Source: Craspedostauros australis (lineage: Eukaryota). Taken from it: 64,000 bases of DNA. A program made the position numbers and the translations under genes. Under the pieces are notes generated by a model. That model was given only the letters and a program-made list of their open reading frames with translations. It was not told the origin of the DNA and made no database searches. The stretch covers positions 1 through 64,000 of the forward strand of contig JALAGF010005483.1 in NCBI GenBank assembly GCA_030167865.1, given 5' to 3'. Positions 1-22,171 of the stretch are shown piece by piece (the stretch's first letter is position 1; each line of letters begins with the position of its first letter).

Positions 1-1580
1 GCGAGACACTGGGATGGAGTTGAGCTGATCGAAGGAAGGCACATCATCAGTGACAGGGTTCACGTCGTGATTGCGCATCCAGTCGAGGGAGTTCTCGATG
101 TCGCGCGCACGTTCACGTGGAGTCTGACCTGGACGGGTTGGGATCATCTGGTCGATCTTCTTGAACTCTCCAGTTGGATCCAACGAATCAGGCTTGCCAT
201 TGCGCATCCAGTTCAACACGTCATCGATGTCCTTGCTGCGCTCCTCTGGGGAGCGACGAGACACTGGAATNNNNNNNNNNNNNNNNNNNNNNNNNNNNNN
301 NNNNGGATGCCAGCTTGTCGAATGGAACGTCGGCATCGCTGTCATCAGCATCGGTTGGCTTCGTGTTGCGCATCCAATCAAGGGCGCTCTCGATGTCACG
401 AGCACGATCCTCTGGAGTCTGGCTCTTCTTCTGTGGGAGCATCTGGTCGATCTTCTTGAACTCGCCAGTTGGGTCGTCCTCATCGTTCTTGCCGTTGCGA
501 GCCCAGTTCAGGACATCATCAATGTCCTTGGTGCGTTCTTCTGGAGAGCGGCGAGAAACTGGGATGGAGTTGAGCTGGTCGAAGGATGGGATCGAATCCT
601 CATCAGGCTTCAATCCCTTGTTGCGCATCCAGTCAAGGGCGCTCTCGATGTCTCGAGCACGGTCCTCTGGGGTCTGACCTGGACGGGTTGGCATCATCTG
701 GTCGATCTTCTTGAACTCGCCGGTTGGGTCATCCTCGGTATCTTTGCCGCTGCGCATCCAGTTGAGCACGTCATCGATATCGTTCGCGCGCTCCTCTGGA
801 GAGCGGCGGGACACCGGAATGGATCCAAGCTTGTCGAATGGGGCAACAGAATCGTCGCTGTCGTCGGGCTTCAGCCCCTTGTTGCGCATCCAGTCAAGGG
901 CGCTTTCGATGTCTCGGGCACGATCCTCTGGAGTCTGGCTCTTCTTCTGTGGGAGCATCTGGTCGATCTTCTTGAACTCGCCAGTTGGGTCGTCCTCATC
1001 GTTCTTGCCGTTGCGCATCCAGTTGAGCATTCTTTCGATATCCTTGCTGCGTTCCTCTGGAGAGCGCTTCGACACTGGGATGGAGTTGAGCTGATCGAAG
1101 GAAGGCACATCATCAGTGACAGGGTTCACGTCTTGGTTGCGCATCCAGTCAAGGGCGCTCTCGATGTCGCGAGCACGTTCTCGCGGGCTCTGGCCTGGTC
1201 GAGTTGGGATCATCTGGTCGATCTTCTTGAATTCGCCGGTTGGATCTTCGCCGTCATCCTTGCCGCTGCGCATCCAGTTGAGGACATCATCGATGTCCTT
1301 CGTACGCTCCTCTGGTGATCGGCGGGATATTGGCAACATGGAATGTGCTTGGAAAGATGGGTCGGTCTCGTCTTGGTCCACGTTACTGGGCTGGTTGCGC
1401 ATCCAGTCAAGGGCGCTCTCGATCTCCCGAGCACGATCCTCCGGAGTCTGACTCTTCTTCTGTGGGAGCACCTGATCGATCATTCTGAACTCGCCAGTTG
1501 GGTCCAAGTCATCGTCGTTCTTGCCCTTGTTCCGAAGCCAGTTCAAGATGTCATCGACATCCATGCCTCGTTCTTCAGGA
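1..1580 (-). repeat. Second coding tandem array, 255-261-bp unit with a ~516-bp higher-order period
   Basis: GTCGATCTTCTTGAA recurs near 151, 446, 701, 962 and 1217. PQKKSQ-type and PTRPGQ-type units alternate; GGCTCTTCTTCTGTGGGAGC is at 421 and 937. Confidence 0.9.
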
Positions 1581-4500
1581 GATCGCTTCGATCCTGGAAT
1601 GTGGGACGAGGGAGCCGGCAAGTCGCTTTGCGAAGCGGCAACGTCCAAGGGTGCTCCAGTGTTTCGGATCCAATCCAGTGCACGTTCGATGTCGTTTGCT
1701 CGATCATCCAACGATTGCTTGGGCTTGAATGGCAGCTGCTGGTCGATTTTGCGGAATTCTTCAGATGCGTCGTCATTTGTCGGTTTCCCGTTTCTGAGCC
1801 ATGTGAGTATCTGGTTCTTGTCGTTGAGCCTGTCCTCTGGTGTGCGCAGGGTCACTGGAAGCGACTTGATTGTCTTGAACGGCTTGTTCTTGGCAGTGGC
1901 GGAAGGTTGGACGCCTTGGTTTCGCATCCAATCCATGGCTGCTTCAATATCCTTCGCTCTATCATCTGGAGACTGGCGGCTCTTTCGTGGCATGGCTGCG
2001 TCGATCAGCTTCATCGTGCCACCAGGATCCATGTTGGCTGGTTTCCCATTTCTGATCCACTCAGCGATTTTTGAGGCTTCGTTGAACCGATCTTCAGGGC
2101 TGTTCTTCGTGGCTGGGACAAATCCCGCTGCTCTGTTGAACTCGTCCACGAAATCATCAGTGGGTTGGAGACCTCTGTTGCGGAGCCAGTCCAACGCCCC
2201 TTCTATCGCTTGCGCTCTGTCGCTGGAAGATTGGCTACGCTTGTGAGGAATGATTTGATCAACCTTGTTGAACTCTCCTGTTGGGTCATCGGAGTCTGAC
2301 TTTCCACCTCGGATCCAAGAGAAAATCTTGTCTAGGTCATCGGTACGTTGCTCTGGGGTACGCCGAGGCATGTTGATGCTTCCTTTCTTTTCGAACGAAT
2401 CAACGTCCTCGTCAGGCGTGCGGAATCCATTGTTTCGAATCCAATCAATCGCACCTTCGAGTTGCTTCGCTCTTTTCTTTTTCGACTGCTTCTTTGGGCG
2501 TGACATGAGTTGATCAACCTTCTTAAATTCGCCCACTGGGTCCAAACTTGCGGACTTCTGGTTGCGCAGCCAGTCCAAGATCTGCGCTTCAGTTCCAGCG
2601 CGTTCTTCCGGAGATCGCGCAGAAGATGGGAATGTGCCAAGCGGTTTGAAAGCTACGCCACAAGGCTCGTTCTCAGCACCCAGGTTTTGAGCTTGTCGCA
2701 ACCAATCCAATGCCCCCTCGATGCTACGAGCGCGATCTTCTGGTGATTCACCACGCTTCTTGGGAAGAACGGAATCCAATTTGCGGAATTCGCCAGTTGG
2801 ATCGAACAAGTCATCATCCTTGCCCTTGTTGCGCATCCAGTTCAGAGCATCTTCGGTGTCCTGGGCACGTTGCTCAGGGGTGCGAATTGAGCTTGGAATC
2901 ATCCCAAGCTTGTCCAACACCGATTCGGTATCATTGTCGTCTGGGGCCAGGTCGTTGTTACGCAACCAGTCCAATGCACCCTCGATGTCACGAGCGCGAT
3001 CTTCGGGGGACTGGCCACGCTTGATTGGCATCATGGCATCCAGCTTGCGGAACTCGCCGGTCGGGTCCAGGAGGTCATCGTTCTTGCCCTTGTTGCGCAT
3101 CCAGTTCAGGGCGTCTTCCATGTCCTGGGCACGTTGCTCAGGGGTGCGACGTGGTGCTGGGACTGCTCCGAGCTTCTCGAAGTCGAGGATGGCATCGACA
3201 CCATCAGCGCCAACGCTCTCATTTCTCAGCCAATCCATCGCGCCCTCGATGTCACGAGCGCGATCTTCAGCAGACTGGCCACGCTTGATTGGCATCATGG
3301 CATCCAGCTTGCGGAACTCGCCGGTCGGGTCCAGGAGGTCGTCGTTCTTGCCCTTGTTGCGCATCCAGTTCAGAGCATCTTCCATGTCCTTCGAGCGCTG
3401 CTCTGGCGTGCGACGGGACATTGGCACGGAGCCAATAGCATCAAAGCCTGGAATGGCATCGACATCATCAGGACCCACACCCTTGCTTCGCATCCAGTCA
3501 AGAGCACTCTCGATGTCACGAGCGCGATCTTCGGCAGACTGGCCACGCTTGATTGGCATCATGGCATCCAGCTTGCGGAACTCGCCGGTCGGGTCCAGAA
3601 GATCGTCGTTCTTGCCCTTGTTGCGCATCCAGTTGAGCGCGTCTTCCATGTCCTGTGCACGTTGCTCTGGCGTGCGACGGGACATTGGCACGGAGCCAAT
3701 GGCATCAAAGCCTGGAATGGCATCGACATCATCGGCACCCATACCCTTGCTTCGCATCCAGTCAAGAGCACCCTCGATGTCACGNNNNNNNNNNNNNNNN
3801 GACTGGCCACGCTTGATTGGCATCATGGCATCCAGCTTGCGGAACTCGCCAGTTGGATCCAAGAGGTCATCGTTCTTGCCCTTGTTGCGCATCCAGTTCA
3901 GCGCATCTTCCATGTCCTGTGCACGTTGCTCAGGGGTGCGACGTGGTGCTGGGGCGGAACCCAACTTGTAGAAGTCTGGGATGGCATCGACATCATCGGC
4001 ACCCACACCCTTGCTTCGCATCCAGTCAAGAGCACCCTCGATGTCACGGGCACGATCTTCGGCAGACTGGCCACGCTTGATTGGCATCATGGCATCCAGC
4101 TTGCGGAACTCGCCGGTCGGGTCCAGAAGATCGTCGTTCTTGCCCTTGTTGCGCATCCAGTTGAGCGCGTCTTCCATGTCCTTCGAGCGCTGCTCTGGCG
4201 TGCGACGGGACATTGGCACGGAGCCAATGGCATCAAAGCCTGGGATGGCATCGACATCATCGGCACCCATACCCTTGCTTCGCATCCAGTCAAGAGCACT
4301 CTCGATGTCACGAGCGCGATCTTCGGCAGACTGGCCACGCTTGATTGGCATCATGGCATCCAGCTTGCGGAACTCGCCAGTTGGGTCCAGAAGATCGTCG
4401 TTCTTGCCCTTGTTGCGCATCCAGTTCAGGGCATCTTCCATGTCCTGGGCACGTTGCTCAGGGGTGCGACGTGGTGCTGGGGCGGAACCCAACTTGTAGA

Positions 4501-7500
4501 AGTCTGGAATGGCATCGACATCATCGGCACCCACACCCTTGCTTCGCATCCAGTCAAGAGCACCCTCGATGTCACGNNNNNNNNNNNNNNNNNNNNNNNN
4601 NNNNNNNNNNNNNNNNNNNNNNNNNNGATTGGCATCATGGCATCCAGCTTGCGGAACTCGCCGGTCGGGTCCAGAAGATCGTCGTTCTTGCCCTTGTTGC
4701 GCATCCAGTTCAGAGCATCTTCCATGTCCTGTGCACGTTGCTCAGGGGTGCGACGGGACATTGGCACGGAGCCAATGGCATCAAAGCCTGGAATGGCATC
4801 GACATCATCGGCACCCATACCCTTGCTTCGCATCCAGTCAAGAGCACCCTCGATGTCACGGGCACGATCTTCGGCAGACTGGCCACGCTTGACGGGCATC
4901 ATGGCATCCAGCTTGCGGAACTCGCCAGTTGGATCCAAGAGGTCGTCATTCTTGCCCTTGTTGCGCATCCAGTTGAGCGCGTCTTCCATGTCCTGGGCAC
5001 GTTGCTCAGGGGTGCGATGGGACATTGGCACGGAGCCAATGGCATCAAAGCCTGGGATGGCATCGACATCATCGGCACCCATACCCTTGCTTCGCATCCA
5101 GTCAAGAGCACCCTCGATGTCACGAGCGCGATCTTCGGCAGACTGGCCACGCTTGATTGGCATCATGGCATCCAGCTTGCGGAACTCGCCAGTTGGGTCC
5201 AGAAGATCGTCGTTCTTGCCCTTGTTGCGCATCCAGTTCAGGGCATCTTCCATGTCCTGGGCACGTTGCTCAGGGGTGCGACGTGGTGCTGGGGCGGAAC
5301 CCAACTTGTAGAAGTCTGGAATGGCATCGACATCATCGGCACCCACACCCTTGCTTCGCATCCAGTCAAGAGCACCCTCGATGTCACGNNNNNNNNNNNN
5401 NNNNNNNNNNNNNNNNNNNNNNNNNNNNNNNNNNNNNNGCACGGAGCCAATGGCATCAAAGCCTGGGATGGCATCGACATCATCGGCACCCATACCCTTG
5501 CTTCGCATCCAGTCAAGAGCACCCTCGATGTCACGAGCGCGATCTTCGGCAGACTGGCCACGCTTGATTGGCATCATGGCATCCAGCTTGCGGAACTCGC
5601 CAGTTGGGTCCAGAAGATCGTCGTTCTTGCCCTTGTTGCGCATCCAGTTCAGGGCATCTTCCATGTCCTGGGCACGTTGCTCAGGGGTGCGACGTGGTGC
5701 TGGGGCGGAACCCAACTTGTAGAAGTCTGGAATGGCATCGACATCATCGGCACCCACACCCTTGCTTCGCATCCAGTCAAGAGCACCCTCGATGTCACGA
5801 GCGCGATCTTCAGCAGACTGGCCACGCTTGATTGGCATCATGGCATCCAGCTTGCGGAACTCGCCAGTCGGATCCAAGAGGTCATCGTTCTTGCCCTTGT
5901 TGCGCATCCAGTTCAGGGCATCTTCCATGTCCTGGGCACGTTGTTCAGGGGTGCGACGGGACACTGGCACGGAGCCGATGGCATCAAAGCCTGGAATGGC
6001 ATCGACATCATCGGCACCCATACCCTTGCTTCGCATCCAGTCAAGAGCACCCTCGATGTCACGNNNNNNNNNNNNNNNNGACTGGCCACGCTTGATTGGC
6101 ATCATGGCATCCAGCTTGCGGAACTCGCCAGTTGGATCCAAGAGGTCATCGTTCTTGCCCTTGTTGCGCATCCAGTTGAGCGCGTCTTCCATGTCCTGGG
6201 CACGTTGTTCAGGGGTGCGACGGGACATCGGGACGGAGCCAATAGCATCAAAGCCTGGGATGGAGGCGTCACTGTCGGCGATAATGCCCTTGCTTCTCAT
6301 CCACGACAAGACATTTGCCATATCCTCTGCGGTCTGCTCTGGTGATTCGTGTCCTTGTGTTGGGAGAGATGCGTGGATCTTTCGGAATGCTCCTGTCGGA
6401 TCACACTCATCATCGTTGGTCCCCTCATTGCGCAACCAGTTCATGATATTCGCAATATCCGAGGATCTCTGTTTTGAGTCTTGGTCCAGAAATTCCATGG
6501 ACTGCAGTTCTTCCAAAGAAGGGATTGCGTGATCACTGTCAGGGATCAAGCCCTGGGACCTCATCCAGTTCATAGAGTTGAGGATATCGCTTGCTCTGTC
6601 TTCGTCGCTTTGGCCAGGCTTGTTTGGCAACGAAGCATCGATCTTGGCAAACAACCCAGCGTGGTCAAAGTCTGGTCCTGCGACCTCTTTGTCGCTTCTG
6701 ATCCAGTTGAGGATATCATCGTATGTGCTCTCGTCGTATGCTGGTGAGCGATTCGTCGCAGAAAAATCAGTGTTCTTACCGAAGACGTCATCCTCGTCGT
6801 CGTCATCGAATCCTGGGGCCAGACCGCGGTTGCGCATCCACGACAGGCCGTCCAGAATCTGATTTGCGCGTTCGGTTTCACTCTGCCCGCTCTTCGCGGG
6901 CAAAGCGGCATCGAGCTGGGCGAACATGCCGGTTGGATCCAGCGAGTCGTTCTTGTCACCTCTCAACCAATTGAGAATATTCTGAAGGTCCTGATTGTTT
7001 CCAACGCCACCTGCCGCAGCGGCAGCTGTTCCGAATGGCATCGTGACCATCGCGTCGCTTTCGATGGTACCAAAGTCATCGAGGTCAACACCATTCTCGC
7101 GCAACCAGTTCAACGCATTTTCCATGCCCTTGGCTCTGTCCTCGGCATCTTCGCCTTCCTTCTTGGGAAGCATGAGATCGAGTTTAGAGAAAACGTCGGC
7201 AAAGTCGAGGACATTGTCGTTGCTTTCGCCTCTGAGCCAGTCGAGGGCCGCGTCAGTGTCGGACGATCTCTGCTCAGCTGTGCGGTACTCGATGGGTGCA
7301 TCGCCCGACTTGGGGAAGAATGTGATTCCGTCCTCCGGATCCTCATCAACAAGGCCTTGGGAACGCAGCCAGTTGAGCGCGCCCTCCATATCTGCGGCCC
7401 TTTCATCGAACGATTCATAATCCCCTGGTGGGATCAAATCTTCAAGTGCGGCGAAGGGCGAGATCGGATCGTTATCGGTTCCACCCTCACGAAGGAAGTC

Positions 7501-10500
7501 GAGAATGTTGTCGAGGTCTTCTTTTCTGGCCTCGGCAGATCTCGCCTTGATTGGCATCGAAGATGAGAGCAGGTCGAAGGTGGGGACGAATTCGTTGTCG
7601 TCAACATCCAGTCCCTGAGATCTGAGCCAGCTGAGAGCGTTTTCCATCTCCTTGGCTCTGTCTTCATCGGATTGACCGCTCTTCTTTGGTAGAAGCGCGT
7701 CGATCCTGTTGAACTTGGAGTCGTCGTCGTCGTCATCGTCGTCAGCGCCACCCTTACCTCTCAACCATGCCAGTGCGCCTTCGAGGTCATCTGCTCTCGA
7801 GCCGGCAAGGTCGCCTTCGATCTTGCCAAACTCATCGAATTGGATATCAGAAGTGATGTCGTCACCCACATCCGTGCCATTCTTGCGCAACCAGTTGAGC
7901 GCGTTGGACATGGCCTCTGCGTCTCGTTCCTCCTTCGATTTGACGCCAAAGCCAGGCATCATCGAGAATGGATCGTCGGTGTCGTCCAAGGACTCGGCAT
8001 CATGGTTGCGGAGCCAGTCAAGGGCGTTGGCCATTTCCTTGTTCCTCTCGTCGGGGCTGCGTCCGAGTGCATCGATGGTGCCAAACTTCTCATCCAAGCC
8101 AGAAAAGTCTGGAGACTCCTGATCGAAGTCTGCGCCGTTCTTGCGAAGCCAGGCCAAAGCTCTCTCCATCTCCTTGGCCTTTCGCTGTTCTGCAGTACTC
8201 ATGCCGGAGAGGCCGAGTTCAGGCGAGTCGTCTTCGTCGATGTCGTTCAGTGAAGCTGGTTGTTCGTTCTTGCGCAGCCATCCGAGCGCGCTCTCGAAGT
8301 CGGAGTCCTTGCCCAGACCTCCTGGGATGGACATGCTGTCCAAAGACTCGAAGCCTGCGAGGGATGGGTCGGCATCGGCATTGTCTCCCACCGAGGCATT
8401 GTTCTGACGGAGCCAATCCAAGGATCGGGCCATTTCGTTGGCGCGCTTCTGTTCTGCGGTTTCGGGGAGAACCGGTACGAACGATGAAAGGTCGTCAGCC
8501 TTGGTGGATTGATCATCAATGCCTGGCACGGACGACTGTTGGCGCGAGCGCATCCAGTCAAGTGCGGAGGCGAGGTCGCTGTTGGTTTCCCCCGTCGGGA
8601 TCCCTCCTGCGATCTTCTTGAAGCTCGCGACCGACATGGCAACCGACATTTCGTCGTCCATGTCAAGTTCGGCGTCATTGGTTCTCAACCAATCAAGCGC
8701 GTTCGCCATCTCTGCGGCACGCTTCTCCTCCTCCGTCATCGCACCAAACGCTCTGGATGCCATCGGCGTGGCGGGACCTGCAGAAGCTTCGTCGTCATCG
8801 TCCGCTCCGCGCTTGCGGAGCCAGTCGAGGGCGCTGCCGAGATCACTTGAACCTCCGGCGGCGCCACGTCCACCGGCCTTGCTGAGCACGGAGTCGATCT
8901 TCTTGAAACTTGCGACAGTCTCATCGTCGACGTCGGTTTTGGTCCGGAGCCAGTTGAGGGCGTTGTCTAGACTGGGGGGACCATCGTTGTCGGCAGACTT
9001 CGGCATGAGAGAGTCGATCTTCTTGAAAGTGGCGACGGAGAATGCGACCGACATGTCGTCGTCCATGTCGAGCTCTGCGTCGTTGTTCTTCAGCCAATCC
9101 AACGCGCTCGACATCTCCTGGGCACGCTTCTCTTCTTCGGTCAGTGGCCCGGACGGTTTCTTCACGGTCTCCTTCGGCTTCGGAGCTGGTTGGTTCTCGG
9201 AGTTGTACCAGGTGAACGTGTCGTTCAGCTGCTTGGCCATGTCCAGATCCATTGCAAGGTGGTTGTTGCGGAGCCAGTCGATCTGTCCGTCCTCGGACAT
9301 GCCGCGTCTGATGTCCGCCCAGAGCTTGGCGAGTGCGTCGATCTTCTTGAGCTTCTCCTTGTCGGATTTGCCCATGCCAGCATCGTCCATGGTGAACTTC
9401 TTCTTTCTCCACCACGAAAGCGCCTCCTCGATTTCCTTGATGGTCTTCTTGTCCTTGCCCTTCTTACCACCCCACGCCTGGAGGATCTTGCGGAGCTTGC
9501 TGGCCTCGGGCTCGTCGGAATCGTCGAGGTGGAATCCCTTGCTCTTGTTGCGGAACCAATCGAACACGGTGGTGATCTCGTCGGCGATCGTCTCCAAGTC
9601 TTCGGGGCTTGTGTCCGTCTTCTGCCAGAAGTGGGCAAGCTGTTGGGCTTTGACGTATTTGTCGGCATCCTCCATCGCCTTGTCGATCTTGATGTTCTTG
9701 CCGTTTCTCTTCCACCAGCCCATGGCATCATCGAGCTCCTTCGCGGTTCTCTTCGCCTCCTTGGCAGAGAGATGCTTGAACTCGTGCTCGGCAAGACCGA
9801 GGTCGCTGTGCCATTCGGAGACGGCATCGAAGAGGTGCTTTTGACGTGTCATGGCAGGAACGGCGTCGAGACGCATCTCAACATCGTCGTAGTCCTTGCC
9901 CTTGTTCTTCCACCAGTTCATGGCGTTGATCATGTCCTTCACAGTCTTCTCGGACTGCTCTGAATCGAAGTTGTTTGCATTCATGCGGCACCATTCCATC
10001 ATGCAGTCCTTGAGGCGCATCAATTCCTGGCGCTGGGCTGGTGTGATGTCCATGCTTGCAAAGTCGAAGTGTTGCCCGTTTGCGCGCCAAAGATCGATTG
10101 CGGAGACAAGCTCCTTGGTGAGGGCCTTGGAACGCTTCCAAGTGAAGTCCTGGCCGATCTCACGAGGCTTCCAGATGTCCAACAGTCCCTTGATGTTGTT
10201 CACGTTGACGATGTCGAAAGGCGAGGCCGTTTCGATGTCGAACTTGTCGCCGTTCTTGCGCCACCAGGACAGGGAGCCCAGGATGTCATCCGCGACATCG
10301 TCAGCGGCGTCTTCGTCGAGACTTTCGGCTGCGGTCAAGCGCCAATCGATCATGGCCTGTTGAAGTCGGCGGAACTTCTCGCCTTCCTCGCCCTCCATCT
10401 CAAACACGGCAGTGTCGTACTTGTTGCGGCGGAACATGATGAGGGAATCCGCGATGTCCTTCAAGTTCTTGGAGGTGCAGTTTGCTTTGTATCCCCAAAC

Positions 10501-12552
10501 GGACATGAGGCCCTGAGCCTTCTTGAACTTGGCAACCTCTTGCGGGCTGGCCGCGTCAAGGTTGAGCTTGTATCCAGTGCTCCTGTACCACTGCATGACC
10601 TCCGTCATCTCCTCTCCCATCATCTTGACCGCACGAGGGTCCAACTCGTCGCGGCGAAGCTGGATGAGGGCGTGCTTCACCTTCTTCAAGGCTTCGGCCT
10701 GGAGCGGGTCAAGGTCTCCCACCGGGGTGTCCTTGTACTTGGCCCACATGGAAAGTGCGCTCTTGATCTCCTTCATGCGCTGATCCAGAGGATCGCCGTG
10801 CTTGAACCCGAAGTGTGCCAAGAGGCTCTGCGCCTTGCGGAACATCTCCTCCTCCTCCGCCGTGGCGGCCATGGGGTCGTAGGTTTCGGCGTTCGCGCGC
10901 CACCAGGAGACGGCATCCTGGATATCGCGAGCGCTGTTGTCTTCGTTCAAACGCCAGTCCACGAAGAGGTCCTGCACACGCTGCATGGGGTCGGACTTGT
11001 AGAACGGATCGTTCAGGTCCAAATCACCGGACATGAACAGCCCGAGAGAGCCGAGTATGTCCTTCGAGAGCTGCTGGGCTCGTTTAACGTCGTCAGACGG
11101 ATCGAAGCTCTCCCAGTTCTGCTGGGGCAAGTCGACGAGGTCCCACGACCCGAAGAGTTGATTGACCTTCTTGAACTTGGCCTGTTCCTGTTCAAATTCC
11201 TTCATGTCCTCGACGTGCTCGTCTCCTCTCTTCTCCCACCAGGTGAGCGAGTCGCGGATCTCGCGTGCCTTGCGCTCAGCCTCGTTGCCGATCTTGTCCC
11301 ACTTGCTCATGGCGTTGCTGACCTTGATGGCCTTCTTCACCGTGGGGTCGTAGTCCTCGGACGACGGCGGAACGTAGTCCTGGTTCATGGAGCACCACTC
11401 GACGATCTTCTTCATGCCTTCGATGCCACCGAAGTCCTTACCGAGACTTGCCGCGAGGTCATCGGCGTCGTCAGCGGCGTCGTCGACGGTGTGGTTCCAC
11501 CAATCCACGGCATTGCGCATCTTCTTGGTGCGCTTCTCCACTTCGGCGGTTGGGAGGTCCGCCTTTCCGGTCTTGGAGGCCTTCCCGCCTCCGCCTTCGG
11601 GACCAGGTAAAGCCGAACGCAGCTCTCGCTCTTTCGCGTTCTCCTCCTGCTTGGCCTTGAGCATGCTCATGAGGTCAGGCATCTCCTCGGTCTTGAACTC
11701 CGTCTGGTTGGAGAAGATGGACATGCCATCGTCCACCGTGGACGTGTCATCTATCTCCCACCAGTTGTCACTGCCGGAGGTCTTGGCCTTCTTGGCGGCC
11801 CCTCCTGCCTCCTTCGGCTTGCTGGCCCCTCCAGATCCTCCAGGATCGGTACCGGCACCGTCACCTGCACCGTCTTCCTCCGCGGCTTCTGGCCTGGTGA
11901 GCCATGCCATCGCGCTCGCCATCTCCATGGCACGTTGCGTGGCCTCGTCCGCGTTGGACTTCGCCTTGACAGTCGAAGATCCCTGACCGGGGTACTTCGC
12001 GGACATGGATGTTCCGACCGAGCGGTCGTCATCGAAAGCCGATTGCTTGGGACCAGCCCCCAACATGCGAGTCAAGCTCGCCATGAGGGAAGGTCCTTGG
12101 GGTGCCTCCTCCGGGCGCGGCGGCGGCGATTCGGGGTGTTGAATCAGCGCCGGCGGCGGCCCGATTGGCACGTCCACAGGCTCCGGAGCCGGTGGCTGCG
12201 GCGGTGCGGGCTGATGGCGACCCGCCACTCGCACAGGCGAAGACACCGCAGCCGCAGGTCTGGACCCACGCTGCGCGCCCGGTCCAGGGGCCTGTCCCTG
12301 CTTCGGCTTGCGAAGCTCGGGTGGGATCTCCATCCCAGGCCCGAAGATCGGCGCCGGACGTCTTGGTCGGAACAGCTCCGGCGGCGGATCGGGTGCCCTG
12401 AAGGTTGCGCGGCGGTTAGGCGGCACATAGGGCATGCGGGTGGTCACCACAGGCACGCGGCGACGTTCGCGGTCACGGCGTTGCTGCTCGATGCGCTCGG
12501 CAGCCTGCCTTTCCTCCTCTTCCTCCTCGGGTCCAAGTGTCCACCAAGCCAT
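1..12552 (-). CDS. Giant Trp-motif tandem-repeat protein of unknown function (>4,100 aa, 3' end outside window)
   Basis: ORFs 4426..12552 and 221..4549 encode the same repeat and are separated only by N-gaps, which account for the frame changes. Bases 270..1 also translate without a stop (IPVSRRSPEERSKDIDDVLNWMRNGK...DQLNSIPVSR). The N-terminus is Pro-rich with no signal peptide, followed by the recurring motif RAxE/D(I/M)ExAL(D/N)W(M/L)R. Confidence 0.9.
2790..6260 (-). repeat. Near-identical coding tandem array, 264-bp (88-aa) unit, at least 13 copies
   Basis: GACTGGCCACGCTTGATTGG occurs at 3009 and 3273 (264 bp apart) and continues with that period. Unit: RDIEGALDWMRSKG...RRTPEQRAQDMEDALNWMRNKGKNDDLLDPTGEFRKLDAMMPIKRGQ. 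The array contains four N-gaps, so copy number is uncertain. Confidence 0.95.
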
Positions 12553-12624
12553 GATGAGATGAAGTTGATGTTCAGTTGGATTGTCCTTGCACGTTCAAAG
12601 AAAACGATAGATCCGAATCGATCC

Positions 12625-15341: not shown

Positions 15342-18300
15342 ATGGGCGCCCCTCCATCGGCCGACGGCACCAGCGAAGATGATGACTCCAGGATACGCGT
15401 TTACTTCCGGCTGCGGCCAATGAACAACCTGGAAAAGTCACGGAGGTCCAAAGACTGCGTTGAGCTGCATGACGACCCCAAGATACTCACGGTCGATGCT
15501 CCGCTGCAAGGGGAATACGACTTCTCGTGCGACATGGTACGTTCCACATTGTAGCTGGCGAGTGCTGGGAGCTTCGTGTGGGAATGGTGAATCTTGATGC
15601 ATGAACGCAAATCACCCAGGACTCAGGCGGCCAGTGACGAGGAGGGAAAGCAGGCCACGCTGTCGTTGAGCTGTGATCTCGAACGCATTCAATGGAGTTG
15701 GCTCATGCCATTTTGGGTGAGGAGCGTTCGAATGATCTCTCAATCCTTCACCGTGCACAACCTCAACCGTCGCTGGCTTCAAACTTGTCTCCAACAACAA
15801 AAATGGCGAAATGGGTTACTGGGTGCGTCACTGGACGGCACCATCTATCGACCTTGAAATTGTTCACGTCATCACCACCAATATCATATACTCTAATACC
15901 GTTGCCAATCATATCATACCATGCCATATCATACCATACCATACACGCAAAACCAGGTCTTCGATGAAGGTGCATCACAAGATGAAGTCTACCACGAAGC
16001 TATCTCTGGCATTCCCCGTCGATTAATGCGAGGGATGAATTGCGCAGTCGTTGCGTATGGACAGACTGGGACAGGAAAAACTCACACAATGATCGGAGAA
16101 GGGCTAGGTGCTGAACTCAACGCAAAAACGAGGCACCTTCGAAATCAACCATACAACGAGAATGGCAACGAAAGCAGGAGCAGCGACAACAGCAACAATA
16201 ACGACAACGACGATGGCACGCTCGAGACTACCCACGGGAGCAACGAAAGGACTGCAGGCGCAGGCATCGCCGCACATAAAGAGAGCGACCCGTCAAGGTC
16301 AGAAGGGATAGTTCCACGGGCCGTTGCAGACATGTTCGATTTGATCCGCCAGGAACCCAAGTCAGTCGAGTACGTTGTGCGGTGCTCCTTCGTGGAGATA
16401 TACCTCGAGAAGATTGTCGATCTGCTCAACCCCGCATCAACGGAAGCCATCGGCATTCACAGAGATTCGGAGGGCTTCACCAACGTGTACGGCGCCTCGG
16501 AGGTTTGTTGCGTCAAGCCAATGGACGTCATCTGTTTGCTCGCACGTGGAAATGCGCACCGGACGCAGTCGTCCACAAATCAGAATGCGGATTCCAGCCG
16601 ATCGCACGGGCTGGTTACTTTGCGGGTAGATCGAACCGACACTGCGACTGGGCAACACCGCACCAGCCGATTGCAAATGCTTGATCTGGCAGGCAGCGAG
16701 CTGGCGCGGACCAAATCATCACGGCAGATCGAAAGCGCGGTGATGGCCGAAGGCAAGATGATCAACCAATCGCTGGCCTGTCTTTCCAACATGATCCGAG
16801 CGACCCTGGCAAACCAGGGCAAAGACCGCGCGGCTGTCCATCCTGATAAATACGCAAATGCCTCGAAGCTGGCGAAACTGTTGCAGCCGAGCTTCGGAGG
16901 CAACATGTTCACGACGATCATATGCACTGCCTCGCCGTCAAGCTACAATATCGGCGAAACGATCAACACAGTACGGTTCGCGCAACGAGTTCAGAGGATA
17001 CGCAATTCGCCAAAGATCTGCGAAAACCTCACGGTCCATGCCTGTCGACAAAAGCTAGCCGCATCGCAAAACAACGTGGATGGTCTGAGCACGCTCGTCA
17101 AAGTTCTGGCAAAGGAATGCAACAAGTTCGCCAAGGCGAACTCGGCAGCGGGCGTGCATATCACCAGCAAGACAGTTTCGAATATAGTTGACCAACTGGC
17201 GGAGCTAAGTCAAGATGATGAAACCGACGTAGGTGATGGCATCGACATCATCATCAAGCCAAAGCACGGCACTACACAGCATGGCGGTGGTGATGGTAAC
17301 GATGACGATGATGGCCAGGGCGACGGCAACGATTTTGTACCGGCCGCGAACGAATTCAGCGAACGTGCACGGAGGGAGATCGAAAGCGCCAACCAGGCCA
17401 GAGATCGGGCCGAGAATACCACCAGGGATATAATGTCTGAGCTCACTGCCCTCAGAAGCCAAAATGAGATCCTCCTGAAGGAGAAGGAGAAGCTGGAGAA
17501 TGAAATGAGTGACACCAAAACAGAAATGAGGAGCCTAACCTCCCGGATGGCTGAAACTGAACACAACCTACGAACCAGCCAATTCCGAGAGAACGAGGCA
17601 ACGACGTTCCTTCGGCTCTTCCGCAGCTTCTACCTCCGCCTGCTCAAGCACAAGGCGGCGCAAGGCAACAACGATACCAGCGCCATTTATGCTGAAGAGA
17701 TGAATCGCAAAATCCCAGGCGTTCCGGAACTGGAGGATCTGATCGACATCGATACACTGATGATGGCAAGCGGCCTCATCGAAGAAGATGAGGTCGGACA
17801 AGACGCCAATGCCCCAGACTACGTCCCCTCCAATGATGCGCTGTCACGAAGCGGGGCGGAAGCAGAGCAGGCAAAGCAGAGGGAGACAGAACTCGTCGAA
17901 GCCATGAACAGCTCGGATAAGCACGCCGAAAGCAACGGCGCTTCATCAGGGGAATTGCTGTCCGCAGTCCACCGTGCCGAGCCCGCGCAATTGACCAGCT
18001 ACCGACAGAAGCTGGTGCAATCGCCCGCGGGGCTCCTGGCGATGAAAAAGGAGAAGGAGCTGGAAAGGGAGCTTCTTGATTTGTCATCCAAGTGTATCAA
18101 CCTCCAGAACGCCGTCAACGCTGAAAAGGCCATGGTCGAGGCCATGTCCTCGAGGCAAGGCGCGCTTGGCAAGATCAAGACCGCGCAAGAAATGAACACG
18201 CTGCGGCAAGAGCTTGAACGCAAGTCAAACGACCTCCAAGCAATCGTGCTCAAGATGAACGAGCTGCACCTAGTAAACAAGACATTCGACGAGAAGGTGG

Positions 18301-20876
18301 AAGCCAGGGAAAGGCATGCATCGTACCTCGAGGAACATCTCTCAGACTTGCAATCCAGAAATAGACGATTGGTCATCGAAAGGCAGGAGGCTGAGAAGCG
18401 GTTACGGGAGGAAAATTTGCACCTGAAGAATCTTTTGGATGGGTATTCGGTCCGGGTTTGGCAGATGGATGCAAGCGAAGGTGGAGCTTCGGATATTGAT
18501 CAGAAGCTCCGTCTGTTAGTCCCATTCAATGGTCCCACACTATCTGAGCAGCAACAGGATGAGGGCAAAGCGGAACGACGATACTCCATCGAACAAGCCC
18601 TGGAGGACATCGCGATGCCTGAGATGGCGGAGCTAGTATCCGCGTCAGCTCAGACTGACGAATCGAACCTCAACCGCGAGAAGGTGGAATGGATCGAAAC
18701 CTCGATCCAAACTGACCCTCCGCCCGAAGGTGTAGACAGCGAGGTACAAACTGAGGCTCCTGAACAACAAGACACCTCGATACAAACAGAGACTGTGGCC
18801 ACATCCGATTTTTCTCTACAAACGGAGACCGTGGCCATGTCTGACTTCTCCCTGCAAACTGATGCGGTGGCGCTAGCCGACACCTCGGCGCAGACGAGCG
18901 ATGTGGTGCTGGCAGATTTCTCAATTCAAACAGACGACATTCCATCGCAAAGCATTTCCTGCCAAACAAACACAATCGAATTCCGTGCTGTTGAAGCGCA
19001 AACGGATGAGCCACCGGAGCCGCGCGATGTGCACATCCAGACGGACGAAATCCTCAGTCCAGAGACGAACGACTGCTCCGCGCAAACGAACGACCAGCCA
19101 ACAATGAACGAGGTTTGCATCCAGACCGAAATTACGGGGGAGATATCTGAAGGACAGCCTGCACACTCTGCACCACCCGATGATGCCAATGTAGAGGCAG
19201 CGCAGGAGGAAGAACAAGAGGACACGGCGACGAAGCAGCAGCAGGAAGCAAGAAAGCAAACGGAGATGGTGGAAATGGCGATTCAAACGGAGACCGAGCA
19301 GGGCATTGATCAAGCGATGCAGACAGAAGAAAAAGAAGAAGCAACAGCAGCAGTTGCTGAAGCCCCCGTAATCACAGTAGAATTCGGCGCGCAGACGGAT
19401 GAAGAAGTTGTCGATGCGCCCGCAGCCACGGTGGAATTCGGCGCGCAGACAGATAAAAGCGGTGAACTGCAAGCTGTGCCCAACATCGAGACGGCAACAG
19501 TGGCAACCCAAACTGACCTTGAGGAGACGGAAGAGGAAGGTGAGGAGAAGGCGAATGCGCATGCAAATACGAAGGAGGAGAAGCCCCCTTGTTCAGAAAT
19601 TGCGATTCAAACCGACGAGCTGCCGTATGTCATCGATGTGGCTGGGAGCCGATCGGTTGACACCGGTTCTCTGGCTGATTCCGATCATCACCCGCATCCG
19701 ACCACCAGCAAGGCTGCCCAACAATCCAGGTACAGTCACTCGCACGAGGCGAATTTTGAAGGATCGATGACAAGTATTGGCGACAGGTGGAAGCAACCGC
19801 GGCATTCTGCCATGTCGCACAATACGAAGTCGGGAGATGAAAGCGACGATTCGCTGACGATCCCAAGCATAACACAGCTGAAGGGAAAGTTCTCTAAGAT
19901 GGCGAACAACAGCTCCGCCGACACATACGCGAAGGCCAATTCGTCGATGTCCTCGTTCGGCAAGCTCACGCCTGTGTCATCAAAGTATAGCGATGGTCCG
20001 TCTCACAAGGAATTAGTCACGCTATCACGAGCGTCGGTGGCACGTCCGCCGCTATCGCAGGGCATACACCATCCAGCACATGCAACAGCAGCCGCGGTGA
20101 GTGGCGTTGGCGGGGTCAGCGTGCGAAGACGGTCAGCGAAAGATGGCGCGGACACTTCCGGCGTCCCGGAATGGATGTCCAAGCGCAAGGAGATGGGGCT
20201 CCAACCAGATGACGGGGTGAAGAATCCCGCTCGGGCTGCGGCGGGCAAGGCCCACGTGAGGAAGAATAGCATGGAATTCGGCAGCCCGTCTCAACTTGGC
20301 TTGTCGCCAAGACGCAGTCCAAAGCCCGTGATCAAACCGAGCATGGGAGGTGGAAGTCAGGTGGAATGGATGCAAAAGCTGAAGCAGATGGGCAAGAAGG
20401 TCGACGATGATTCCACTTCCACTGCATCATCTGTTCATGAATCAAAGTCACCGGTCCCTCCTCCGAAGTCGCCCGTCTCAAAGCAGCAGCAGGGTTCGCA
20501 GCTGGAATGGATGGAGCGCTTCAAGCAGATCGGAATGAAAGGCGAGGAGACTGTAATCGAGGCGTCGGGCACAATACCAAGTACGCGTCAGCATGATGAC
20601 GACGACGACGACGGGCTTGTAGCAGACGATGGGCAACCGGAATGGAAGAAGCGGTACAAGCAGATCGGTCAGAAAGGAGTGGAGGAAGTTGTTATTGTGG
20701 AGAAGGCACACAGAGGTCGGGCTTCCGGCTTCGACCCGCAGCGCTTTGCCGGCGAAGGCCATGACGAAGAGGAGCTGGAGCGCATCAGAAAGGAGGAGAA
20801 GCGGGCAAGGAAAAAAGAACGCAAGGCGATGAAGAAAGCCAAGAAGGCTCAAGAACGGATGCAGGCCGAATATTAG
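15342..20876 (+). CDS. Kinesin motor protein, kinesin-1/KHC-like, with extended tail (2 exons: 15342-15536, 15957-20876)
   Basis: Exon 1 has RIRVYFRLRP. A phase-0 GTACGT...CAG intron (15537-15956) joins it to VFDEG. Motor motifs: P-loop AYGQTGTGKTHTM, SFVEIYLEKIVDLL, switch I SSRSH, switch II DLAGSE, INQSL, SFGGN. A coiled-coil stalk follows. Confidence 0.93.
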
Positions 20877-22171
20877 TGAGAATGTAGCATAATTGTGGGT
20901 ACACCGTCGAAAACTAGATACTATGTCACATTGCGTAGAGTGTAGCATGCACGAGTGCAACTGGGAGTGGCAAAAGGTGGTTTCGGACACTCCATAATTG
21001 TGCGCGTGGATTCTCACACGTACGAATACGAGTGCCGCGATCATCATTTGCCTTGCATGTGCCGGTACGGGACCGCCACCGTCTGCATGCCAATATGTCT
21101 GCGTGCCTCTCTTTTCACCATAGATCATACCCCTCGTCTGGTTGCCCACATTTCTCCTCACTGTCTGAGCCTCCATCAGCATTGGCCTAATACACAATGT
21201 GATGGGTCCCTATTTCCCCAGCTACGTGTTCGGCGGCCTCATTCCACTTCACCACAATGGAGAGACTCCAGCAAGCCAGGCCAATGCTGTTGGCTCTTCA
21301 AACAGGAGGGACTCTTTCCCTGATGAACAAAGGAGCAGGCCTTGACTGGATGTCGTCTCCTGCTCTCCATGTTATAACATGTCCATCCTCCGGCAGAAAT
21401 GGAATACACAGACATCCAGAACAAGAGGAATGGTGAGCAAACTGGATGCAAGTTGTGCAGGTTCTATTCCGGTTGACTGCAGACGGTTGCGATGACATAT
21501 AACAGCAGCTTCCAAAGGGTCGCCCCGCGCGTCATACAAATACATATTCACTTATAACATGTCATGTCGCAGCGAATGAACAACAACCGTTGGGAATCCG
21601 GTCATGCCTGTGTCTCCTTACTGAATTCAATTTCAACATGCCGCAGCTTACACAAACGCTACAGAGCCGGATGAGTTTCGTTCTTCGAATTGTCATCGTT
21701 CGATAGATGAAGTCGATCTATCCAACGGACAGTCCAGAAACGGGGGATGTCCAGACGAAGAGAAGAAACGCATGATGTCGGACACGTCAGCCGACACAAT
21801 CGTCCACGTTCTGATGTGTGAGAACTACTTGGTGAATTCTGTGACGCCAGCTCCGGTTTTGATGTGATAGGGCAAGAAGGAACACCACGGAGATGAAGGT
21901 GACGATGGTGCGTGAACGGTCGGTTTTGAGAAGCAGACAGCCGTTTGGACAGTGTTGAGCGCAATGGCAGATAGCTGAATGGAGTACGCGAAGTAGGGGT
22001 AGTCGAGTGCTCCGTTTCTGTGCCTGCATACCCTTTACCGATTGCGGATCAGGACTCACGAGAGCGGAAGACTTGGGGCCATCTGCTCTCTCTCTCTCTC
22101 TCTGCGTGTCTCTGTGTGTCTGTGTGTGTGTCTCTGGAAAGTATTCAAGAAGTGGCTGCATCCTTCCCATC

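Follow-up and report, generated by a model that had tools for sequence, protein, structure and literature searches.

A diatom kinesin heavy chain with a candidate multivalent array of LC8-binding motifs in its predicted disordered tail

Disordered chains of a nucleoporin, of a transcription factor, and of the cortical adaptor KANK1 are known to be assembled into duplex rods by the LC8 (DYNLL) dimer, but no such assembly is known in a kinesin heavy chain. Reported valencies include five sites in Nup159, three each in Chica and Bassoon, 11 in human ASCIZ, and seven, including a TMT motif, in fly ASCIZ, with ASCIZ described in 2018 as the partner with the most LC8 sites (PMC5963919). KANK1 has at least 15 sites, and upon cooperative binding of LC8 its disordered linker becomes a rod longer than 50 nm (220 residues), for which one long-linker hinge has been proposed (PMC12803091). 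Myosin Va is a motor with a single validated LC8 site, with a TMT anchor (PMC6607443). Here, we analyze a stretch of 64,000 nucleotides from the diatom Craspedostauros australis (contig JALAGF010005483.1, positions 1 to 64,000; hereafter, the window), which encodes a kinesin of 1,704 residues with a dense cluster of Gln-Thr (QT) motifs past its stalk. Judging from its sequence, this protein is reasonably likely to be a diatom-specific kinesin heavy chain with a kinesin-1-like motor and a multivalent array of LC8 sites in a disordered region past the stalk. Full-text literature searches on kinesins with LC8/DYNLL, TQT, or multivalent tails returned no description of an array of LC8 motifs in the heavy chain of a kinesin, in agreement with a first-pass annotation of the window, which knew of no described kinesin with this architecture.

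The kinesin open reading frame (ORF) comprises 1,659 codons (15897-20876, + strand), and a two-exon model of the gene gives the spliced product of 1,704 amino acids with a normal kinesin N terminus. The spliced junction, between ...FSCDM and VFDEG..., agrees with the N termini of relatives, such as P0010-P0013. Pfam recognizes PF00225 (E 1.1e-69) and PF16796 (E 2.9e-15) in the ORF, and the hallmarks of the kinesin superfamily, namely, the P-loop, switch I (SSRSH), and switch II (DLAGSE), are readable in the translation. The DNA of the window is eukaryotic, and its G+C content is about 54%. The gene and the parts that matter for the array are as follows:

15342..15536, + strand: exon 1, with the start codon and the first 65 codons of the motor domain (ATG at 15342, frame open to the GT donor at 15537)
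15537..15956, + strand: intron of 420 nt, GT..AG, from reading of the sequence (AG at 15955-15956; the join restores the frame)
15957..20876, + strand: exon 2, a single open frame that starts within the motor and runs without interruption over 1,639 codons, up to the stop codon (20874-20876)
15939..17000, + strand: kinesin motor domain, exon 2 part, with P-loop GQTGTGKT, SSRSH, and DLAGSE (Pfam)
17001..18473, + strand: helical stalk, conserved across the diatom family, with the blocks NLRTSQFRENEA... and ...NDLQAIVxKMNELHLVNK..., ending in VWQ (consensus of the family alignment)
18636..19130, + strand: QT block 1, 13 eight-residue motifs at residues 959-1123, spaced by 19, 13, 12 (seven times), 13, 15, and 13 residues (pLDDT < 50)
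19131..19268, + strand: acidic gap of about 45 residues, rich in Gln and Glu, a possible hinge, with one K-Q-T-E site of poor anchor (Q at 19257)
19269..19616, + strand: QT block 2, six motifs spaced by 12, 24, 18, 21, and 33 residues, which holds the sole canonical TQT

The kinesin contains 21 QT dipeptides, one of which belongs to the P-loop, whereas the other 20 lie within residues 964-1283 (window positions 18651-19613), with the successive spacings running on from block 1 through 45 and 9 residues, on either side of the site in the gap, to block 2. All but one of these 20 sites match [AILVCMT]-Q-T-[DENS]; the remaining one is the K-Q-T-E site, the charged −1 residue of which resembles an RQT non-binder (PMC6607443, section 9). 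The enrichment is real and far beyond chance: the 338-residue segment holds 20 QT, compared with 4.0 ± 1.8 in composition-preserving shuffles (maximum of 11 in 20,000). This segment contains 80 Asp and Glu versus 12 Lys and Arg residues, along with 41 Thr and 33 Gln. The first-pass description, an acidic segment of about 330 residues with about 19-20 QT motifs, thus agrees with the translation, in which every heptad that it listed was found. In an AlphaFold2 model of residues 881-1704, for which the input was an alignment of eight rows (seven relatives), the array has pLDDT below 50 and no secondary structure over its whole length. A separate reading of the segment as an ATM/ATR-type cluster of S/T-Q sites was rejected, because Ser or Thr precedes Gln at only one of the 20 sites.

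Comparison with the described LC8 systems reveals both likenesses and differences. In the DID segment of Nup159, a run of motifs in a disordered region, joined by linkers of 4-5 residues, is bound by the yeast LC8, Dyn2, and the stacked dimers make a beads-on-a-string rod with a structural role (PMC5963919, PMC12803091). These linkers match the 12-13 residue period of block 1, but Nup159 is a nucleoporin with five strong motifs, whereas the window protein is a motor heavy chain with 13 + 6 candidate sites, mostly with non-canonical anchors. The L2 linker of KANK1, a microtubule-related protein, combines many weak, non-canonical sites with uniform linkers of 3-4 residues (PMC12803091), and the layout of two blocks with an acidic gap looks alike in the two proteins; however, KANK1 is an animal cortical adaptor with anchors that are often not QT, whereas in the window kinesin all sites are x-Q-T and the protein is itself the motor. 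ASCIZ (ATMIN) likewise has a high-valency TQT array in a disordered, acidic C-terminal region (PMC5963919), but it is a transcription factor that senses the LC8 level, with variable linkers and heterogeneous complexes of low occupancy, and without homology to kinesin. Finally, myosin Va is, like the window protein, the heavy chain of a cytoskeletal motor, with an LC8 (DYNLL2) site with a TMT anchor near coiled coils of the tail (PMC6607443), but it has a single site rather than an array and works on actin, not microtubules.

A search of 5.8 billion proteins yielded about 45 close relatives of the window kinesin at E < 1e-110, followed by generic kinesins at E ~1e-38, and the named close relatives are all diatoms (Cylindrotheca, Pseudo-nitzschia, Attheya, and Cyclotella). 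From 48 retrieved sequences, we obtained 46 family rows, including the window protein, 45 of which have the stalk-end marker (P0022 does not). Eight rows end no more than 60 residues past this marker and hence are tail-less. Motif number in orthologues, which the first-pass annotation had proposed to survey, is as follows: among the 37 rows with a tail of 60 residues or more, 32 have at least one QT within 400 residues past the stalk, and five have none. In 13 rows (the window protein and P0002-6, 9, 14, 19, 27, 31, 40, 43), the QT count is matched by at most two of 2,000 shuffles, and the relatives among these rows have 5 to 15 QT each. The QT array is, then, an expanded feature of the diatom kinesin clade, with 1-2 to 15 motifs in the relatives and 19-20 here; being family-wide, it is not an added extension peculiar to the window protein, as had been supposed. 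In the transcriptome-derived relatives P0023 and P0025, which are marked as complete, the motor and the motifs are on one ORF. The array cannot be aligned as a domain; when it was used as a query against 1.84 billion representatives, there were 10 matches at E ≤ 0.001, none of them from the kinesin family. The last motif of block 2, IAIQTDELP, is conserved in position, with invariant Q and T columns and T404, D405, L407, and P408 in alignment A1.

For the phylogeny of the family, we built a quick IQ-TREE tree from 34 motor-domain rows, which lacks five named rows missed by the P-loop pattern. The 17 family rows form their own clade (SH-aLRT 99), apart from fungal kinesin heavy chains, and the window protein groups with P0002 and P0003 in the subclade of the largest arrays. 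The centric-type members form one subclade and have a single ASTQT followed by GTMTD past the stalk, an arrangement that parallels the TMT site of myosin Va. The members P0010-P0013, P0015, P0017, and P0021 (about 930-975 residues) end right past the stalk and have neither a QT array nor a distal tail. Because P0010 and P0011 adjoin the subclade of the window protein in the tree, this subgroup seems to have lost its tail or to have had it split off.

The residues around the QT cores fit the published rules for LC8 binding. The consensus of Rapali et al. (2011, PMC3078936) has D/S at −4, K at −3, X at −2, T/V/I at −1, Q at 0, T/V at +1, and D/E at +2. According to Jespersen et al. (2019, PMC6607443), positions −1 and +1 take mid-sized residues that form hydrogen bonds or are hydrophobic, and position 0 takes Gln; at +2, Pro, Asp, and Glu are favored and hydrophobic residues disfavored; −2 is free of bulky aromatics, −3 preferably has a large side chain, and −4 is polar, such as Asp, with no hydrophobic residue bigger than Ala; internal Pro and many like charges are unfavorable. 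At the 19 sites of the window protein, −4 is D9 E6 S2 T1 A1 (D, E, S, or T in 18 of the 19); −3 is F5 V4 T3 I2 and others; −2 is S9 A4 E2 G2 H C, that is, small and never aromatic; −1 is I7 A6 L2 V C M T; and +2 is D10 E6 N2 S1 (D or E in 16). The 143 motifs of the relatives are mostly canonical TQT, with T74 V30 I16 A10 M7 L4 at −1 (T, V, or I in 120), E58 D57 N10 at −4, S45 G24 A22 at −2, D79 E36 at +2, and E43 D26 at +3. A filter that combined these rules (anchor T/I/V/L/M/C, zero disfavored residues, polar −4, and P/D/E at +2) passed 12 of the 20 QT sites in the window protein, nine of them with T/I/V at −1, and 98 of the 158 QT sites in the tails of the relatives, compared with 4 of 128 in the motor and stalk of the family and 4 of 324 in 75 unrelated kinesins. 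The window sites outside these passes include six with Ala at −1 and the KQT site, which fails. The fit of the flanks is independent of the observation made in the first-pass annotation, because the flanks formed no part of it.

The spacing of the motifs provides another line of evidence. Fifteen members of the family have four or more motifs, which gives 124 successive spacings. Of these, 123 are at least 12 residues long, 29 of them being exactly 12, and the one exception is 9, so that no spacing of 10 or 11 occurs. Random placement of the same numbers of sites over the same spans gave 44.4 ± 4.2 spacings of 10 residues or fewer (minimum of 32 in 2,000 trials), compared with the one observed. 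Twelve residues correspond to an eight-residue motif and a four-residue linker, and short, uniform linkers, such as the 3-4 residues of KANK1 and the 4-5 residues of Nup159, have been argued to favor cooperative rods (PMC12803091, preprint). If an object of fixed size were bound along the chain, it would set just such a lower limit of spacing, common to arrays that are diverged and irregular. At the DNA level, Tandem Repeats Finder detects only one 36-nt repeat in the array (2.2 copies, 79%), so that this is not a recent tandem array. Twenty 36-nt units centered on QT have a mean identity of 44% (maximum of 78%), falling to 34% in the flanks outside the core, and the codons of the core are mixed, with CAA 13 and CAG 7 for Gln and ACG 8, ACT 5, ACA 5, and ACC 2 for Thr. 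Because the units and flanks have diverged and all Thr codons are used, we conclude that the QT core has been kept at the protein level while the DNA drifted.

Taken as a reading of the motifs, the LC8 proposal of the first-pass annotation gains from the flank rules, the predicted disorder, the conservation in relatives, and the 12-residue limit, and loses its details concerning the extension and kinesin-1. From the motifs and these features, we infer LC8 binding and, in turn, the dimer register, rod formation, and regulatory role outlined below. Several observations weigh against it. The coiled coil of the stalk and its parallel dimerization are taken from kinesin biology. Many sites of the window protein would be weak or non-canonical for LC8, because the anchors are mostly I/A/L-Q-T with one true TQT among the 19 sites, six having Ala and four having L, M, or C at −1. 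The favored Lys or Arg at −3 is absent, Ala occupying this position in 52 of the 143 motifs of the relatives, and the segment is strongly acidic, as noted above. Published work stresses a mid-sized residue at −1, lists RQT, many like charges, and a small −3 residue as disfavoring binding, and reports that many TQT peptides fail to bind LC8 (Jespersen et al., PMC6607443). Three of the 10 sequence matches to the array (P0128, P0129, and P0131) appear to be cell-surface proteins of bacteria with repeats of the GTQTD type, which implies that QT[D/E] arrays can arise without LC8. The 12-residue period could be a relic of the 36-nt repeat unit, a minimal ancestral repeat, rather than a footprint. 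Finally, LC8 was present in all 24 eukaryote genomes surveyed by Wickstead and Gull (2007, PMC2239267), including those of the diatoms Thalassiosira pseudonana and Phaeodactylum tricornutum, and its presence in C. australis is presumed from this literature for other diatoms; none of the 17 largest ORFs of the 64-kb window matches LC8 (PF01221) in Pfam.

Acidophilic kinases phosphorylate S/T-x-x-D/E, and the prevalence of acidic residues at +2 and +3 in the relatives fits sites of this kind. Hence, the motifs could be functional but read by a partner other than LC8, either as an acidic docking or spacer element regulated by phosphorylation (casein-kinase-2-type) or by a diatom-specific reader of x-Q-T-[D/E]. 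The mostly non-canonical anchors of the window protein and the conserved RRxS site that adjoins the array (see below) speak in the same direction. A kinase site, however, leaves unexplained why Gln is invariant, why −1 is beta-branched or hydrophobic, −4 polar, and −2 small, and why the minimum spacing is 12 residues, and no other reader of TQT-type motifs was found in the LC8 literature examined, so that we regard a non-LC8 partner as rather unlikely. An entropic, acidic, low-complexity spacer without any specific partner, in which the QT[D/E] cores persist from an old tandem repeat simply as the part that changes most slowly, would account for the still detectable 36-nt repeat, the seven spacings of exactly 12, the wide variation in repeat number among relatives, and the similar QT[D/E] repeats of bacterial surface proteins. 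Such a spacer appears improbable given that Q-T is kept with all synonymous codons between flanks that are only 34% identical in DNA, that relatives with unalignable arrays retain the same core and flank preferences, and that even diverged, irregular units almost never lie closer together than 12 residues (1 of 124 spacings).

The array might also lie outside the mature kinesin, owing to an unrecognized intron or a separate transcript, as the lack of RNA coverage of the array in the window would allow: a read contig from one sequencing run, the kind of which was guessed, spans only 20179-20935, apart from tiny fragments, and the intron is likewise uncovered by RNA reads. This we consider highly implausible, given that the array is in frame inside the 1,639-codon exon, is flanked on both sides by blocks that align with relatives, and shares one ORF with the motor in the transcriptome-derived relatives.

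If the array does bind LC8, the stalk would pair two heavy chains in parallel, and each LC8 dimer would take one motif per chain as a beta-strand in its two grooves, so that the two tails would be zipped into a ladder, as in Nup159, ASCIZ, and KANK1. The 13 close sites of block 1 (eight-residue motifs with linkers of 4-5 residues over 165 residues) would stack into a beads-on-a-string rod of about 35-40 nm, a length scaled from that of KANK1. The acidic gap would serve as a hinge, followed by the six looser sites of block 2 at spacings of 12-33 residues, which would be more flexible. Such a rod would extend and stiffen the connection of the motor to the distal tail, with its EW repeats and basic helix, and its assembly would depend on the supply of LC8. 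More tentatively, and with appreciable doubt, we propose that up to 19 LC8 dimers zip the two tails into a switchable, hinged rod of tens of nanometers, such that the stalk is partly built of LC8; that a single clamp of the centric type, with one TQT and one TMT, expanded stepwise while the 12-residue footprint was kept; and that the result is a length-tunable spacer leading to the distal tail, which may itself interact with actin or with membranes.

If the proposal is correct, the valency of up to 19 LC8 dimers would possibly exceed that proposed for any other protein, and a new class of LC8 client would be added, from a major algal lineage. Diatoms would then offer a natural series within one motor family, from one to about 19 sites, in which motif number, anchor strength, and linker length could be tested against rod length and cooperativity, and motor reach or autoinhibition could be coupled to the availability of LC8. 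The 12-residue spacing floor is a signature that needs nothing but sequence and could be used to find other LC8 arrays.

The motor resembles that of kinesin-1, within limits. Its best matches among solved structures are kinesin-1 heavy chains (E 7e-50, 173.7 bits, compared with 163 for kinesin-8 and 156 for KIF4), and some database labels of the relatives read kinesin family 5. Like kinesin-1 (KIF5/KHC), the window protein has its motor at the N terminus, followed by a long helical stalk and, past the stalk, by a short hydrophobic-Pro motif, but for the stalk blocks of the family, the QT array, the EW repeats, and the GGKPxxxxPRRF motif, no counterpart was found in kinesin-1. The autoinhibitory IAK motif of the kinesin-1 tail is QIAKPIR. 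This sequence is not present in the window kinesin, and both KLRLLVPFNG, which had been placed at 18504-18533 and indeed lies there, and its family consensus are only loosely similar to it. Because the family forms a clade apart from fungal kinesin heavy chains, the IAK analogy is only a resemblance, and membership in kinesin-1 only a possibility. Thalassiosira pseudonana has two kinesin-1 genes (Richardson et al. 2006, PMC1434745). Within the motor, shortly past the P-loop, there is an insert of about 60 residues rich in Asn, Ser, and Asp (about 16100-16290, + strand), between ...HTMIGEG and ...GIVPR, and the relatives have inserts of variable length at the same position.

Around the array, AlphaFold2 predicts a helix at the end of the stalk (18405-18473), and the remaining features of the tail are as follows:

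18504..18533, + strand: KLRLLVPFNG, the family-wide R-[ILV]3-P-x-x-G motif just past the stalk, kept in relatives (alignments A1 and A2)
18576..18587, + strand: RRYS, a basophilic Ser site that recurs in relatives as ERRxS[LI]G and lies past the stalk end, ahead of the first QT motif (conserved in alignments A1 and A2, with R59, R60, and S62 invariant in A1)
20166..20669, + strand: four x-E-W-[MK]-x-[KR]-x-K-[EQ]-[MI]-G repeats (EW repeats) of the distal tail, starting at 20169, 20364, 20505, and 20640, also found in relatives
20766..20870, + strand: C-terminal helix rich in Lys, Arg, and Glu (AlphaFold2, fragment residues 789-823, pLDDT 94-97)

The ERRxS[LI]G site varies little or not at all among the long members of the family and is a candidate site of regulatory phosphorylation. 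Three of the four EW repeats are predicted as short helices by AlphaFold2, and the distal tail (19638-20873) has no Pfam matches at E up to 1. One family member, P0008, ends instead in a villin headpiece (PF02209, E 7.9e-13), the last helix of which looks similar to the EW repeats. A kinship of the repeats with the villin headpiece was considered but is unsupported, as Pfam gives no link at E up to 1, and a role of the EW repeats in actin binding is only an idea.

Long x-Q-T-[D/E] arrays also occur in three other, apparently eukaryotic proteins, P0122, P0123, and P0127. In P0127, an ORF from a transcriptome, an N-terminal helical region precedes about 20 x-Q-T-[D/E] motifs along with TMTD variants, and P0122 consists of about 40 alternating GMQTE/ELQTE units behind an apparent signal peptide. 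No Pfam domains were detected in these three proteins, and a homology search with P0127 returned only P0127 itself.

Elsewhere in the window, the ORFs at 29841-61259 resemble ordinary genes of eukaryotes and include, according to Pfam, a SAE2/CtIP C terminus, a methyltransferase, ankyrin-repeat proteins, a NUDIX protein, a TPR protein, a glycosyltransferase of family 61, a COPI-associated protein, and a Vms1-like release-factor protein (bVLRF1 + VATC), none of them related to LC8 or dynein. On the − strand, 221-12594 holds two huge ORFs of 1,506 and 2,722 codons, separated by a run of N, which consist of dozens of repeats of about 45 residues. Each repeat contains the motif A-L-[DN]-W-[ML]-R-x-[KN]-G, and Pfam gives only weak, stretch-less UBA-like matches; the two ORFs look like a single giant repeat protein encoded beside the kinesin gene.

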